Of a DNA stretch of 64,000 nucleotides, positions 2,842-35,757 are shown in pieces. Each line of letters starts with the position of its first letter. Position 1 is the first letter of the stretch. A model generated the notes under the pieces. It was not told where the DNA came from. It did not search any database and was given only the letters and a program-made list of their open reading frames with translations. Made by a program: the position numbers and the translations under genes. The stretch is from Phycisphaerales bacterium (GTDB lineage: Bacteria; Planctomycetota; Phycisphaerae; WQYP01): positions 1-64,000 of the forward strand of contig DAIDJN010000053.1 of assembly GCA_027451365.1 (NCBI GenBank), given 5' to 3'.

Positions 2842-3902
2842 AGTTAACAATGCCGGGCTGGCTATCATGGACCGCAGGGAAAATTCTCCGGCCACGCTGT
2901 TATGGCGTATCGGTATTGCTTGCAGCCGAGGCGGTTAGCCTGTGCTGCTGTTCACTGTTTGCGGCGGCCAATGTGGCGGCTGTACCGCCTTCGCCCACAC
3001 CTGTGCCGCTGCCGCGTATGATTCGACTGGTTCAAAGCATCCCGGATCGCATGGCGCAATTGGACCAGCAGTTGAGGACAAAGGCACCCCTGGGAAAGAT
3101 GGAGTTGTCGATACATCTGGGGCGCGACGTTTTGGCACCCCATCGAGGCCATGGGGGCCGGGCATTCCCGCCATTCGCGGCGAGGTCCGAGTTCTTTTCC
3201 TATCATAATGGCAATTGTGATGCGGTGTTCACCGCGCGAGGGGGCACCGAATGCTATTGCGGCCACAAAGGGAATATCCGGTACGCCGCCGTCTTTGACA
3301 ATCACTTTGCAAATAAGGTCTTTTTCGTTATCGGCAAGGGCGGCGTGAAGGCGGCCGCATTGCCGCCCGTGCCCCGGTGGCTGGCCAAGGGAGTGCCTAC
3401 GGATCCGGCGAATTGGAACATCCCCAAAGCTGTCGTCATTACACCAAGCTTTACGATTTCGCCGGCGGAGCTGTGGAATTGTGACTCTGCCGCTATAACG
3501 ATCAACCCTTGCAGAGCGAAATTCCAGCTCGCGACGGGCTATTTTCGGTTTGGTTTCGGCCGGTACCGGCGAGGCCAGGCTCCCCCTCCGTTGCGAACGG
3601 TTGAGATGTCTGGCTTGCAGAGAAAACACGGCTTGGAAAGCGAGACGATCCTGTCGATCAGGACGGGCACCCGGACGACCACGCTGCCTATTCATCTGAC
3701 GGGCGATTCGCTTGCGAAGCTTGGGTTTAACGTTGTGCCACTAACGGCCAAGACGCCCGCTCCTGCGATAAACCCGCTGACACCGTCGCAAATTGCCAAG
3801 GCTCGGGTGATGCGAGAGCGTTTTGAAAAATGGGCGGGTGTGCGGAGCCGATTGCACCCGGGGTCACAGGTCAAACTGAAAAAGAGTGGTGGCCACAAAT
3901 GA
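2838..3902 (+). CDS. Exported hypothetical protein, candidate second immunity paralogue
   Basis: Translationally coupled to the previous gene; hydrophobic N-terminus; shares short motifs with 1795-2841. Confidence 0.6.
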   Translation: MKLTMPGWLSWTAGKILRPRCYGVSVLLAAEAVSLCCCSLFAAANVAAVPPSPTPVPLPRMIRLVQSIPDRMAQLDQQLRTKAPLGKMELSIHLGRDVLAPHRGHGGRAFPPFAARSEFFSYHNGNCDAVFTARGGTECYCGHKGNIRYAAVFDNHFANKVFFVIGKGGVKAAALPPVPRWLAKGVPTDPANWNIPKAVVITPSFTISPAELWNCDSAAITINPCRAKFQLATGYFRFGFGRYRRGQAPPPLRTVEMSGLQRKHGLESETILSIRTGTRTTTLPIHLTGDSLAKLGFNVVPLTAKTPAPAINPLTPSQIAKARVMRERFEKWAGVRSRLHPGSQVKLKKSGGHK

Positions 3903-31437: not shown

Positions 31438-32580
31438 ATGGCACGTCGCATCATTTTCCTGATTACGGATCTGGACCTGGGCGGCTGCCCGCTTCTTCTG
31501 CTGCGCATTGTCCGTGAATTAAAGATGCGCGGCCACTTTGCGCCGCATGTGGTAAGCATTAAATCACCAGGCCCGGTGGCCCGCTGGATACGCAAGGCTG
31601 GCGTGGAAGTAACCGGGCTGCACGCTTCTGGCGCCGGAGATTACCGCGCGGCCATGCGCTGGGTCCAACTGCTGCAATCGCTACGGCCTCGAGGCGTGCT
31701 TAGCATGCTGATTCATGCAAACCTGCTGGCGGCGGCCGCGGCACCGGTCTGCCCGCCGTGCGTGTATCTCCAGTCATTGCACACGCTGCAGACCTCTCCG
31801 GCGTGGCGTTGGCCCGCTAACAGCCTGCTGGCCAGCCGATGCGCGGGAGTGCTGGCGCCTTCGCAGGCTATTCTGGATCGCCTTTCGCGGGAAGGGTTCA
31901 CCGGACCGCAATTCGTTGTGCCAAATGGAATCGACGTGAATGTGTTTGCCGAAGCCCGGGCCGTGCCACCCGATCGACTCCCCTGGCCAGCGGGATCCAC
32001 CGTGATCGGCTATGTCGGCCGGTTTGATCCGGTTAAACGGCTTGACGCCCTGCTCCGCGGTTTTACCCGGCTGCTTCTGGCGGATTACCAGCGCTGGCAA
32101 CATGTGTATCTGGCCCTGATCGGCTACGGCCCCATGGAACCGCCGCTGCGCCGGATGGCGGCGGACCTGGGCATTGCCTCCCATGTGGCTTTTCCCGGCC
32201 CGACGGCCAGTCCACAAGATTGGTATAAATGTATTGATGTATTTATAAATCCATGCAATGTGGAAGGCTTCGGCCTGTCGGTAATTGAAGCCATGGCCGC
32301 CGGCGTGCCGGTAATCGCGCGGCGGGGCGGGGCCATCAGTGAAATCATCACCCATCAGGTCAATGGCTGGCTGTTTGACCCGTCGGACTTGGCCGCGGGC
32401 CATCTCGCCACCAGCGCCGAGGCAGAAGCTCGCAGCATTTGCGATTCACTTTCCACGCTCCTGGCCAATGCTGCCCTGCGGCAGCACCTGGCAGTGGGCG
32501 GCCACAACCGCGTTGTGGGGCGATATACCACCGATCGCATGGTGGATGGCTATGAGCAAATTATGGAAAAATTTATTTAA
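31438..32580 (+). CDS. Glycosyltransferase family 4
   Basis: ITDLDLGG, VPNGID, VGRFDPVKR, EGFGLSVIEAMAAGVPVI. Confidence 0.92.
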   Translation: MARRIIFLITDLDLGGCPLLLLRIVRELKMRGHFAPHVVSIKSPGPVARWIRKAGVEVTGLHASGAGDYRAAMRWVQLLQSLRPRGVLSMLIHANLLAAAAAPVCPPCVYLQSLHTLQTSPAWRWPANSLLASRCAGVLAPSQAILDRLSREGFTGPQFVVPNGIDVNVFAEARAVPPDRLPWPAGSTVIGYVGRFDPVKRLDALLRGFTRLLLADYQRWQHVYLALIGYGPMEPPLRRMAADLGIASHVAFPGPTASPQDWYKCIDVFINPCNVEGFGLSVIEAMAAGVPVIARRGGAISEIITHQVNGWLFDPSDLAAGHLATSAEAEARSICDSLSTLLANAALRQHLAVGGHNRVVGRYTTDRMVDGYEQIMEKFI

Positions 32581-32708
32581 GTTTTCGCATTAGTCGCCAC
32601 ACCCCATGGCTAGTACTGCCATCTCACCATATACACCACCTATTGTAGCGACCCTTTCATTTAAGTGCGGTACCTCCCCACACGTCTAGTGGCGATTTTC
32701 GATATTAT

Positions 32709-32781
32709 TTGCAATTTACTGTAGAAGTGGGTACGCTTAGGTCGATGTGGAGAGAAGTAGAGTAAAATGGGAGAAAAAGGG
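32709..32781 (+). promoter_or_regulatory. mraZ promoter with 10-bp-periodic MraZ-type boxes
   Basis: TTGCAA(32709)-17 bp-TACGCT(32732). GTGGG 32727, GTGGA 32747, GTAGA 32757, ATGGG 32767, AAGGG 32777 are in 10-bp phase. Confidence 0.7.
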
Positions 32782-32815
32782 ATGAGGTATTTAAAGGCCC
32801 GGAGCCGGATGTAAC

Positions 32816-33298
32816 ATGCTTTTTTCTGGCACATTTCGCCATACCATTGATGGCAAAAACCGTTTATCTGTGCCAGCAACGGTACGAAGAGAATTCGACC
32901 GCTTCGGGATTGAAAAGTTACTGGTCGGGAAAGTTGCCTGGGTGCCCGGGCCGGACAAAGGCGGCTGGTACTGCCTGCAACTTATTCCCCGCTTGACTTA
33001 TGAAGCCGCCTTAGAATGCCGCAATCAGGCCGGCAAAATTAACCGGACGGCCCTTGAATTTGAAGCCATGGATGAAATGTTCGCGGATGTCGGCCAGATG
33101 GAGCTTGATGCCCAGGGTCGAATCCTGATTCCCGACGAATTCATGGTGCATCCCGGAATGGACGACGGTGTGTTCGGAAAACGGATTTTGGGAACAGACG
33201 TTGTGGTGTGCGGCGGTGGCGACATGTTGACCATCTGGAATGTGACCGACCACAACGAATACAGAAAATACCGGCAGCGCAAGGATGCTGCTGCCTAA
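32816..33298 (+). CDS. mraZ: Transcriptional regulator MraZ
   Basis: FSGTFRHTIDGKNRLSVPA, LDAQGRILIP, VVVCGGGDMLTIWN; upstream of rsmH. Confidence 0.88.
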   Translation: MLFSGTFRHTIDGKNRLSVPATVRREFDRFGIEKLLVGKVAWVPGPDKGGWYCLQLIPRLTYEAALECRNQAGKINRTALEFEAMDEMFADVGQMELDAQGRILIPDEFMVHPGMDDGVFGKRILGTDVVVCGGGDMLTIWNVTDHNEYRKYRQRKDAAA

Positions 33299-33690
33299 GG
33301 CTGGCATAATGCCGCGGCATGGACGCCGGGAAGCCAGCCCCAATACAACTTGAATTCACAACGTGCAGGCATGGATGGCCCGCACAGCGGATTCAACAAA
33401 AGACGCACGGAAGCGTCTGGATTCTCCCGGCGGGATCGCGATTAAGGATGATCGCATAACCGCCGTTCAGCAGCAGGCTTCGTTCCGGCACGCATGGACG
33501 CGTCGCCGGGACGCCGCCCCTGAAACCATTGACCCCAAACGTCAGCACGACGCTGGCGGGAAAAATGGCTCGCGGAGCGGGCCTGTATGCCGTACCAACG
33601 TCATGGATGAACCCGGCATACGCCAAGGATTGGCTGGATGGACACATGGCGGCCAATCGTGTGTCCATCCTGCTTTGTACTTTTTTCGTT
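33273..33690 (+). ncRNA. Putative CsrB/RsmZ-like multi-GGA-hairpin RNA
   Basis: Nine stem-loops with GGA in the loop (eight in ANGGA context), then a terminator-like stem. Confidence 0.65.
33636..33690 (+). terminator. Terminator-like hairpin between mraZ and rsmH
   Basis: ggatggacacat / gtgtgtccatcc 12-bp stem (one G-U) followed by tgctttgtactttttt. Confidence 0.5.
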
Positions 33691-33745
33691 CCTATGCGGA
33701 ACTTTTGTCTTGTGCGGGCAGGTGCCAATCCTGCCAAAGGTTTCC

Positions 33746-34678
33746 ATGGACGCTGGTGAGCACGGCCATGACCCCGTTTTGCTGGATCAGGTGTTATCTA
33801 TTCTGCAACCCCGCCCTGGCGAGGTTGCCTTGGATGCCACCACCGGCCGCGGCGGACATGCTCTGGAAATTGCCGCCCGAATCGGCCCTTCCGGCACTCT
33901 TCTTTGTGTTGACGCCGATCCCGAAAACCTTGCCTACGCCCGCGAAAGGCTGTCTTGTGTTCAGGCGAAATGTCGCTTTTTCCACGCCAATTTTGCGGAA
34001 ATTGGCGATGTCCTGGCGACCGCAGGTTGCGGAGAAATTGACATGATTCTCGCAGACCTGGGTGTTTCCACCAATCAACTGCTGACCGGGCGGTACGGCC
34101 TCGGCTTTTCCATGGATGCGCCACTGGATATGCGACTGGACCCGCGGCTTACCCGTACCGCCGCGGATCTGGTACGGAATCTGACGGAAAAACAACTGGC
34201 TGATTTAATATTCAACAATGCCCAGGAACGGCTTTCGCGGCGCATCGCCCGCCGCATTGTGGAAACCAGAAAGACCACGCCAATCGTGACCACTGCGCAA
34301 TTGGCCGCCGTGGTGCGCAGCGCTGTTGGCCCCACACCCTATGGCCAACTGGATTCGGCAACCCGAACGTTTCAGGCCCTGCGAATGGCCGTCAATGAAG
34401 AATTGTCCAGCCTGCAGTCGCTGTTGGACGCCATGCCGCGGGTGGTGAAGCCTCAAGGCCGGGCTGCCGTCATCAGTTTTCACTCCGGCGAAGACCGTCT
34501 GGTGAAACAAGCCATGCGGCAATGGCAGACCGATGGACGGTGCGATATTCTGACACCCAAGCCGCTGATGGCGGATGAAATTGAACTTGCCCGTAACCCG
34601 CGCAGCCGCAGCGCCAAATTGCGCGGCGTCAGGTTCCGTCAGATGACGGGTCCGAAGGAGTACCCCCTCGAAAACTGA
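33746..34678 (+). CDS. rsmH: 16S rRNA m4C1402 methyltransferase
   Basis: HDPVLL, DATTGRGGHA, ADLGVS, PLDMRLD, ATRTFQALRMAVNEEL, ISFHSGEDR, NPRSRSAKLR. Confidence 0.97.
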   Translation: MDAGEHGHDPVLLDQVLSILQPRPGEVALDATTGRGGHALEIAARIGPSGTLLCVDADPENLAYARERLSCVQAKCRFFHANFAEIGDVLATAGCGEIDMILADLGVSTNQLLTGRYGLGFSMDAPLDMRLDPRLTRTAADLVRNLTEKQLADLIFNNAQERLSRRIARRIVETRKTTPIVTTAQLAAVVRSAVGPTPYGQLDSATRTFQALRMAVNEELSSLQSLLDAMPRVVKPQGRAAVISFHSGEDRLVKQAMRQWQTDGRCDILTPKPLMADEIELARNPRSRSAKLRGVRFRQMTGPKEYPLEN

Positions 34679-34827
34679 CTCCGGGCAGGGTCTGCCCCCC
34701 CGGACAAATGCGGTGCGGGGTTGTGAATATAATGGGAAAGAGAGATCGGTTTTTCAGCGCCGCCCGCATAATGGATTGCGGATTTTTGCGGCAGGATTTT
34801 GCGATGGCATTCGGGAGTTTGGCAGCC

Positions 34828-35757
34828 ATGAGTCGTGACACGCGTATCGGAATGGTAACCGGGCTGGCAATTATTGTGCTGATTGGCGCACTGCTTTCCA
34901 TGTATCTGGATCGGGCACAAAGCTCGGTTCAGCCAGCCGCGTTGGCGGCATTGGGAAGCGCATTTCGTGATTCTCTCATTAACCCCCCTACCAGCACAGT
35001 TCCCCCGCCACCGTCACAGGCGAATACACCGGCTCGCAATGCGCCGAGCACAGGCATGGCACCGCGGGCGGGCGCAGCTGGTGGAAATTCTGCAGCGCCT
35101 GCCCAGATGGTCATGGGCAATGTTTATAATTCATCAATCAATGCAATGCCCACACCGCCGGCCAGCTTCCCCATCGGCTTTGCGCGGGTTGGGAACCTTA
35201 AACCGGTTGGAAACCAACCGTTGGGTCAAACCGGCGGTAATTCCAGTATTCGCACCTACACAGTTAAATCCGGCGATACACTCACCCATATTGCGTGGCT
35301 CTGCTATCACGATGGCGGCCCACTGGCGGTCCGGCGGATTATTCAAGCCAATTCGGCCACATTGAAAAATATCCACAGCACGCTGCACATCGGGCAGAAG
35401 CTGATCATTCCGCCCGCAACCGTTTCAACTTCGGTTGCCGCACACGCCACCATGAATCTTACCCAGATGGCCGCCACCACCAATACCGGCCGCCTTCCGG
35501 GAATGCGACGCGCCAAACAGGCTGCGACACAATTGATTGACGGCTTTTTCCCGAAGGATTCTGCCGCCAGCGCGCCAACTGCTGCCGGCATGAGCTATAA
35601 AGTTAAGCCGCACGACACACTGGCAGCGATCGCCCGGAAATATATGGGCAGTGCATCCGTGGCAAATATTCACCGCATTATGGCGGCGAATCACATAAGC
35701 AATCCTAATAAGCTTGCAGTCGGCATGGTCTTGCGCCTGTCAACTACCGGGCATTGA
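34828..35757 (+). CDS. Membrane-anchored protein with two LysM domains
   Basis: N-terminal TM; YTVKSGDTLTHIA..LHIGQKLIIP and YKVKPHDTLAAIARKY..LAVGMVLRL. Confidence 0.9.
   Translation: MSRDTRIGMVTGLAIIVLIGALLSMYLDRAQSSVQPAALAALGSAFRDSLINPPTSTVPPPPSQANTPARNAPSTGMAPRAGAAGGNSAAPAQMVMGNVYNSSINAMPTPPASFPIGFARVGNLKPVGNQPLGQTGGNSSIRTYTVKSGDTLTHIAWLCYHDGGPLAVRRIIQANSATLKNIHSTLHIGQKLIIPPATVSTSVAAHATMNLTQMAATTNTGRLPGMRRAKQAATQLIDGFFPKDSAASAPTAAGMSYKVKPHDTLAAIARKYMGSASVANIHRIMAANHISNPNKLAVGMVLRLSTTGH

Follow-up and report, generated by a model that had tools for sequence, protein, structure and literature searches.

A putative multi-site CsrA decoy RNA behind mraZ in a Phycisphaerales bacterium

RNA decoys of the translational regulator CsrA have been characterised mainly in Gammaproteobacteria. 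CsrB and CsrC of Escherichia coli and RsmY, RsmZ and RsmX of Pseudomonas (Rfam clan CL00106) display many A(N)GGA hairpin loops, end at an intrinsic terminator and occur in genomes that encode CsrA; csrB and rsmZ are transcribed from their own promoters. We analysed a 64,000-nucleotide (nt) stretch of a Phycisphaerales bacterium (positions 1 to 64,000 of contig DAIDJN010000053.1, assembly GCA_027451365.1; 4.06 Mb, 93%-complete), hereafter called the window, and describe an element of ~400 nt at 33273-33686 on the + strand that also shows these loops, an intrinsic terminator and CsrA in its genome. We consider that this element is probably a multi-site RNA decoy that sequesters CsrA. Its site number, ~9 in ~400 nt, falls between those of CsrC and CsrB. 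It differs from these RNAs in that it has no sequence or structure homology to them (14.7 bits against a gathering threshold of 100), belongs to the phylum Planctomycetota, lies directly behind mraZ, shows no promoter of its own and is not known to be under BarA/UvrY-type control; in addition, its host has the protein antagonist FliW. A review describes FliW as lacking in Gammaproteobacteria and as anti-correlated with BarA-UvrY, which drives the decoys (PMC7652899).

RsmW of Pseudomonas aeruginosa derives from a 3' untranslated region (UTR), which is the biogenesis that we propose here, and is reported to be an RNA of ~120 nt with 7 GGA motifs, 3 of them on outer loops, that binds RsmA in vitro and complements rsmY/rsmZ (Miller et al. 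2016, PMC4950607). The present RNA is instead ~400 nt long, has mraZ as its parent gene, lacks homology to RsmW and is known from sequence alone. The flaA mRNA of Campylobacter jejuni is both a target and an antagonist of CsrA, and a further likeness is that, in a FliW-bearing bacterium without a known Csr-type small RNA (sRNA), CsrA can be titrated by a portion of an mRNA (Dugar et al. 2016, PMC4894983). However, the flaA mRNA is coding, carries few sites and is tied to flagellin, whereas the array studied here is long, non-coding and placed behind mraZ, and is kept in genera in which no flagellin was found (in the host's family, f1, flagellin occurs in 12 of 45 genomes and the RNA in 19 of 20). 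A conserved RNA element beside rsmH (mraW) in the division cluster is known from Actinobacteria, the mraW RNA motif of Rfam; it is not a GGA array, it gave no match here at expectation values (E) up to 10, and the present RNA follows mraZ, not rsmH. CsrA itself is reported from about 30% of bacterial genomes and as common in Planctomycetota (PMC13443453). A full-text literature search, with most subscription papers outside its scope, returned no such RNA in Planctomycetota or beside mraZ, and the statement of the first-pass annotation of this stretch that none had been described in the lineage holds for the literature searched. What is new here is the apparent absence of the array where CsrA is not detectable, its linkage to mraZ versus rsmH, the periodicity and covariation analyses, the promoter scan and the flagella finding.

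The mraZ coding sequence (32816-33298, +; PF02381, 53.7 bits) is separated from its downstream neighbour rsmH (33746-34678, +; PF01795, 277 bits), which lies outside the RNA, by 447 nt, where ~450 bp had been estimated. The ATG at 33746 is the most likely start of rsmH, because the Pfam MraW match opens at residue 43 of the open reading frame (ORF) 33638-34678 and because the alignment with relatives opens at that ATG. The first-pass annotation had described nine GGA-loop hairpins in and before this spacer, and all nine were located, on the + strand. H1 (33273-33295; GGCAGCG-CAAGGAU-GCUGCUGCC, with its GGA at 33283-33285) lies within the last codons of mraZ and has a counterpart at the same place in a same-genus relative (CCAUGGACG). 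H2 (33315-33328; CGGC-AUGGAC-GCCG) is nested inside a larger stem at 33299-33339 and precedes a conserved AAUACAA box (33342-33348, +), AATAC/TACAAT-like in most genera of the family alignment, which may be a processing site, a -10-like element or neither; no -35 to go with it was found. Further along come H3 (33363-33388; GUGCAGGC-AUGGAU-GGCCCGCAC, with one mismatch), H4 (33401-33418; AGACGC-ACGGAA-GCGUCU), H5 (33438-33455; GCGAUU-AAGGAU-GAUCGC), the central hairpin H6 (33485-33509; CCGGCACGC-AUGGAC-GCGUCGCCGG, with one bulge) and H7 (33567-33583; GGCUCGC-GGA-GCGGGCC). H8 (33585-33621), in which an outer stem GUAUGCCG/CGGCAUAC surrounds an inner UCA-UGGA-UGA, opens a conserved 3' domain that also holds H9 (33622-33634; GCCAAGGAUUGGC), the most conserved site, with the family form GCC-ANGGAN-GGC. 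Beyond the sequence itself, these assignments draw on relatives for H1 and H2, on the aligned GGA kept in the family for H3, on the family alignment for H4 and H9, on a same-genus comparison for H5, on covariation for H6 and on an aligned cGGAg in several genera for H7. An intrinsic terminator (33636-33686, +) closes the element about 60 nt before rsmH. The T-rich tail announced for it is present, with T6 at 33681-33686 within the sequence that follows the stem (TGCTTTGTACTTTTTT), and its stem at 33636-33670 counts 14 pairs rather than the 12 first given. Past this terminator, at 33688-33712, comes another small hairpin, GTTCCTATGCGGAAC, whose tail is T-rich and for which the family alignment shows no conservation.

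The + strand of 33270-33700 has a minimum free energy (MFE) of -193.7 kcal/mol against -160.9 +/- 5.1 kcal/mol for 100 dinucleotide shuffles (z -6.4; 0/100 as good), so that this check, named in the first pass, came out in its favour. The MFE fold retains H1, H2, H4, H5, H6, H8, H9 and the terminator; H3 and H7 are missing from it, with other pairings in their stead. Folding is just as good for the minus strand (z -6.2), as expected of hairpins, and since folding energy alone gives no strand, we took the strand from the motif asymmetry, the T-run and the G-U pairs. In the spacer, ANGGA outnumbers its complement TCCNT 8:1. The GGA of ANGGA is predicted to be largely exposed, its unpaired probability from the partition function being 0.78 against 0.35 elsewhere in the folded region and 0.49-0.83 against 0.26-0.36 in 8/8 family representatives. 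When the genome was scanned on both strands, in 321,346 windows of 450 nt, for A.GGA with the GGA in a loop no longer than 9 nt that is closed by 4 or more pairs, the spacer ranked first with 7 such loops (mean 0.28, standard deviation 0.54); by raw ANGGA count (10) it ties for the genome maximum. A cruder scan for any GGA in a loop of at most 10 nt on a stem of at least 5 pairs did not single it out. The runner-up GGA-hairpin regions lie mostly within long open frames, one exception being a sigma-factor leader, and no second sponge candidate was found among the next-ranked regions of this genome.

A DNA search with the spacer in 41 relatives gave a single match, in a same-genus genome (73%); distant relatives were reached through MraZ searches and a covariance model. 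The family set gathered through MraZ comprises 29 f1 loci from 17 genera with both genes present. All 29 spacers measure 389-730 nt and all keep the array, with 3-6 matches each by the A.GGA hairpin criterion. ANGGA occurs 3-12 times per spacer and TCCNT 0-2 times, and loop matches amount to 0.93 per 100 nt on the + strand versus 0.02 on the - strand; this asymmetry and the G-U pairs of the terminator agree with the + strand first assigned. The spacer shows no codon periodicity in 5/5 genera, its variable sites being distributed evenly among the codon positions (p 0.29-0.98). As controls, the flanking genes gave p < 1e-3 in nine of ten cases, the tenth being mraZ in genus g13 (p 0.15); across relatives within the host's own genus, p was 6e-6 for mraZ and 1e-12 for rsmH. 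The longest open frames of the spacer shift frame and strand among close relatives, and five spacer ORFs had no match in Pfam. A conserved ORF filling the spacer, named at the outset as an alternative, is therefore not seen.

The stems, on the other hand, covary. For H6, in alignment A2 (24 family sequences, anchored on the GGA), pairing holds in 86.6% of cells and compensatory changes are seen at 13 of 16 pairs; there are 90 double-change cells versus 29 in shuffles, and 0/500 shuffles reach that count or the covariation score. Sliding the register lowers pairing to 27-45%, and positions A19, G21, G22, A23 and the closing G25 are invariant. The terminator reaches 97.6% paired cells, and compensatory changes are found at 10 of its 12 pairs; its many G-U pairs would be C-A mismatches if read on the other strand, and RNAalifold predicts the terminator alone within the 3' domain. 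The loop of this terminator (GGCCAA/GGCCAG/AGCCAGC; columns 81-92 of family alignment A1) is conserved in sequence across genera though the stem covaries. H9 is 90.7% paired and nearly invariant in sequence, so that covariation is uninformative there either way. Stems that vary around conserved GGA loops, as the first pass had noticed within the window, are thus recovered among relatives, as H6 shows with its invariant loop bases. R1, a covariance model built from the 3' domain with the H9 register off by one column, matches the window at 33584-33692 (57.9 bits) and finds exactly one copy in the host genome and in 19/20 other f1 genomes; among 130 genomes taken from other families in the class it gave one weak match. 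The spacer RNA is non-coding, structured, encoded on the + strand, single-copy and terminated.

Across 199 GGA hairpins of the 29 f1 loci, the loop consensus is C-A-N-GGA-Y-G, with C at -3 in 58%, A at -2 in 63%, U/C at +3 and G at +4 in 68%. The CsrA consensus obtained by SELEX (ligands evolved systematically through exponential enrichment) is RUACARGGAUGU, in which ACA and GGA do not vary and GGA lies mostly within a hairpin loop, according to that review (Pourciau et al., PMC7652899). The loop consensus is the core of the SELEX motif and as such a predicted high-affinity site. The csrA gene that the first-pass proposal presupposed is present in two copies (PF02599). CsrA1 (89.8 bits) scores above both equivalog cut-offs of NCBIfam, can be aligned with solved RsmA/CsrA proteins over residues 1-55 and keeps the conserved N-terminal and VHRxEI stretches; CsrA2 (64.6 bits) is diverged, its nearest solved structure being RsmE of entry 2jpp. 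The CsrA1 gene directly follows fliW (PF02623, 45.5 bits). Convergent to fliW-csrA, on contig C34 of the same genome, lies a gene for a NarL/FixJ-type response regulator with receiver and GerE domains (L001:55-720, +); regulators of this type belong to the same broad family as GacA/UvrY, the drivers of Csr/Rsm RNAs in Gammaproteobacteria. As a separate observation, the sigma-factor leader among the next-best GGA-hairpin regions belongs to a FliA/WhiG-family gene (TIGR02479, 245.5 bits, above cut-off; G000:C17:42628-43560, -; locus L144). Just before the start of this gene stand two adjacent GGA hairpins, GGUACAGGGAUGUAUU and GUGGUUAAGGAGUGAGCUAU, the second covering an AAGGAG ribosome-binding site; this predicted arrangement is the classic one for leaders that CsrA represses.

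The distribution of the array was compared with that of CsrA in 151 genomes sampled evenly from the class; CsrA was found in 134 of them. No CsrA was found in any of the 16 genomes of family f3 or in G083, a member of family f16. The 15 f3 spacers are 349-476 nt long, a length like that of the others, and hold 3 matches in total, or 0.05 per 100 nt, which equals the genome background. In G083 the mraZ-rsmH gap measures 5 nt, versus 221-223 nt in two CsrA-bearing f16 mates. The array is thus missing where CsrA is not found, a suggestive rather than a statistical association because it involves two independent lineages only. Other classes of the phylum mostly lack the array (24 matches in 30 loci), and the density upstream of rsmH is 0.38 matches per 100 nt in Planctomycetota-titled records versus 0.12 in other phyla; relatives with Tepidisphaeraceae in their titles appeared poor in the array in that comparison. 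Within f1, CsrA was found in 20/20 sampled genomes, in 19 of which the RNA occurs, and flagellin in 8 of 17 genera, where it adjoins csrA. In the host genome itself, searches for flagellin (PF00669, PF00700) and FlhA (PF00771) found neither at 93% completeness, though fliW-csrA is kept. CsrA, and in this genome FliW, is thus retained where the usual partner of FliW appears to be missing, and a route to CsrA control through RNA would be especially useful there.

We assessed to which of its neighbours the array belongs in ten genomes of six families in which rsmH does not follow mraZ. The array is kept in 10/10, with 28 matches within ~450 nt behind mraZ, while 1 match in total was found in the 600-nt regions that precede the ten unlinked rsmH genes. 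This comparison assigns the array to mraZ and not to rsmH. The first-pass view of an RNA of the mraZ-rsmH operon therefore stands for its mraZ part and falls for its rsmH part. That annotation had offered either a CsrA-titrating RNA or a CsrA-controlled attenuator: the sequence comparisons support the decoy, and the attenuator is weakened since the array is kept behind mraZ without rsmH. At one locus (L088 of G139, family f21), a csrA-like gene (~3487-3651, +), whose product shares 38% identity with CsrA1 over 55 residues (E 3e-8), is encoded on the same strand ~770 nt past mraZ, just beyond the GGA hairpins of that genome.

A loose sigma-70-type scan points to a promoter-like site of mraZ at 32709-32737 (+; TTGCAA, 17 nt, TACGCT); a stricter scan of 32500-34000 gave 0 sites. 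In 28 f1 loci, a TTGACA-type -35 with a TAnnnT -10 recurs at a fixed place upstream of mraZ (15 matches versus 5.3 expected), and no sigma-70-like site was found either at the mraZ 3' end or within the RNA body, on the understanding that the promoters of these hosts may not all be sigma-70-like. GTGGG, GTGGA and TGGGA repeats at 32720-32790 overlap and follow the promoter-like site of mraZ, with similar GTGG repeats in relatives; we take them to resemble MraZ operator boxes. Since no promoter of its own is seen, the RNA is probably the 3' UTR of mraZ. It has the features of a 3'-UTR-derived sRNA, namely no own promoter seen, a terminator shared with mraZ and lasting linkage to mraZ. Four metatranscriptome runs were consulted. 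Three lack coverage of the stretch, which is no sign that the RNA is absent; the fourth gave a weak hint of expression, a single 153-nt contig at a depth of ~4, which is mismatch-free over 33562-33679, the rest of 32700-33900 being uncovered.

Several of these results weigh against a CsrA decoy derived from mraZ, beginning with the small number of lineages behind the association with CsrA. In the f3 gap, a strong hairpin directly follows mraZ and a small conserved ORF lies just before rsmH (e.g. L090:2022-2429, -, and L097:2535-2858, +; ending ...LLARLEAGAALS..VH, with no Pfam match), so that the whole locus has been remodelled there. Among 31 loci from CsrA-bearing families beyond f1, 21 have at least 2 matches and 3 have none, and density there is lower and uneven (0.11-0.81 per 100 nt). 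The hairpin criterion is a heuristic made for this analysis. The metatranscriptome contig has flanks that differ from the window, its strand and ends are not given, and its origin may be DNA or a relative. The scan found 1 sigma-70-like match in 28 loci between the terminator and rsmH; rsmH may thus rely on read-through, which would allow a role in cis. Rfam, searched over 32400-34200 with 4227 families in E-value mode, gave no score near gathering: the best in the Csr/Rsm clan, the 14.7 bits cited above, is that of RsmV at 33272-33418, RsmY scored 12.8 bits (gathering 57) inside rsmH, and the rest of the clan had no match. The RNA is therefore not a member of the CsrB, CsrC or RsmX/Y/Z/V/W families and would be an analogue of CsrB/RsmZ.

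A cis-acting element that responds to CsrA, and governs either the stability of the mraZ mRNA or read-through into rsmH and beyond as an attenuator or antiterminator, is the rival that we take most seriously, though we hold it unlikely. The terminator does sit between mraZ and rsmH, with ~60-110 nt after it nearly free of promoter-like sites, H9 abuts it, and the 5' arm of its stem in the window carries two GGA (GGAUGGACAC), with the A that gives GGA at that stem position in 14 of 25 family sequences. The remaining 11 lack this GGA, however, the array persists behind mraZ where rsmH lies elsewhere and is all but missing before the unlinked rsmH genes, and its 8-10 consensus sites exceed those of known cis targets (4 in glgC, 6 in pgaA); a cis role in mraZ stability may nevertheless exist. 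It is improbable, in our estimate, that the RNA instead serves a partner other than CsrA, with its GGA loops read by a different protein, or acts as a stabilising 3' structure or scaffold. The conserved terminator loop (GGCCAG / AGCCAGC) and AAUAC box are not explained by CsrA, and no Rfam family matches; yet the loop consensus equals the SELEX core, the array is at background in the f3 spacers and gone from G083, and CsrA1 keeps its conserved stretches.

An sRNA gene transcribed independently, from a promoter located at or shortly after the end of mraZ, would still be a CsrA sponge and is a variant of the decoy reading; we regard it as very improbable. The box just after the mraZ stop could be its -10, the promoters of this host need not fit the sigma-70 pattern used, and a NarL/GerE-type regulator gene stands beside fliW-csrA. 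The scan that sees the mraZ promoter in about half of the 28 loci nevertheless sees none at the mraZ 3' end, and in the host's own genus H1 and H2 precede the box, H1 lying inside mraZ, which fits a transcript coming from mraZ. That the spacer is a small protein gene or a functionless cluster of repeats we consider extremely improbable: GC-rich as it is, it contains open frames of up to 130 codons, and f3 carries its small ORF at the same place, but the even spread of variable sites, the changing frames without Pfam match, the single copy of the 3' domain per genome and the compensatory changes that preserve its stems all speak against it.

In the decoy reading that we prefer, transcription would start at the mraZ promoter and end at the conserved terminator ~60 nt before rsmH, and the RNA would be the 3' part of the mraZ transcript, possibly trimmed later into a shorter stable RNA. 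Through 8-10 hairpin loops with the consensus C-A-N-GGA-Y-G, it would bind several dimers of CsrA1 and/or CsrA2 at once, and the lowered level of free CsrA would relieve repression of its mRNA targets. We infer this binding, the titration of CsrA and the co-transcription with mraZ from the comparisons above. The RNA would then be a functional analogue of CsrB/CsrC/RsmY/RsmZ and, in its biogenesis, an analogue of the 3'-UTR-derived RsmW. Going further, we tentatively raise the possibility, which we rate below even, that the mraZ-linked RNA is the main CsrA antagonist across Phycisphaerae, expressed from an MraZ-controlled promoter as the mraZ 3' UTR and working alongside FliW. The surroundings of the locus also depart from the usual division cluster: the next gene past rsmH (34708-35757) encodes a LysM-domain protein (PF01476, two copies) and not ftsL/ftsI.

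The comparative evidence goes beyond the counting of motifs, since it includes the absence of the array where CsrA is not detectable, the linkage to mraZ and the covariation of stems, all of it sequence-based. If the decoy reading is true, sequestration of CsrA by RNA arose independently, RNA and protein antagonists, the latter being FliW, can work in one cell, and CsrA is tied to mraZ, a poorly understood gene that stands first in the division cluster. If, moreover, the RNA is the main antagonist, the state of the division and envelope programme would set the activity of CsrA as a global translational regulator, the RNA route would persist where flagellin or FlhA is not found, and the view of RNA decoys and FliW as alternative, lineage-exclusive controls of CsrA would be overturned. 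To our knowledge, almost no post-transcriptional control is known in Planctomycetota, and the array behind mraZ would offer a testable handle on it.

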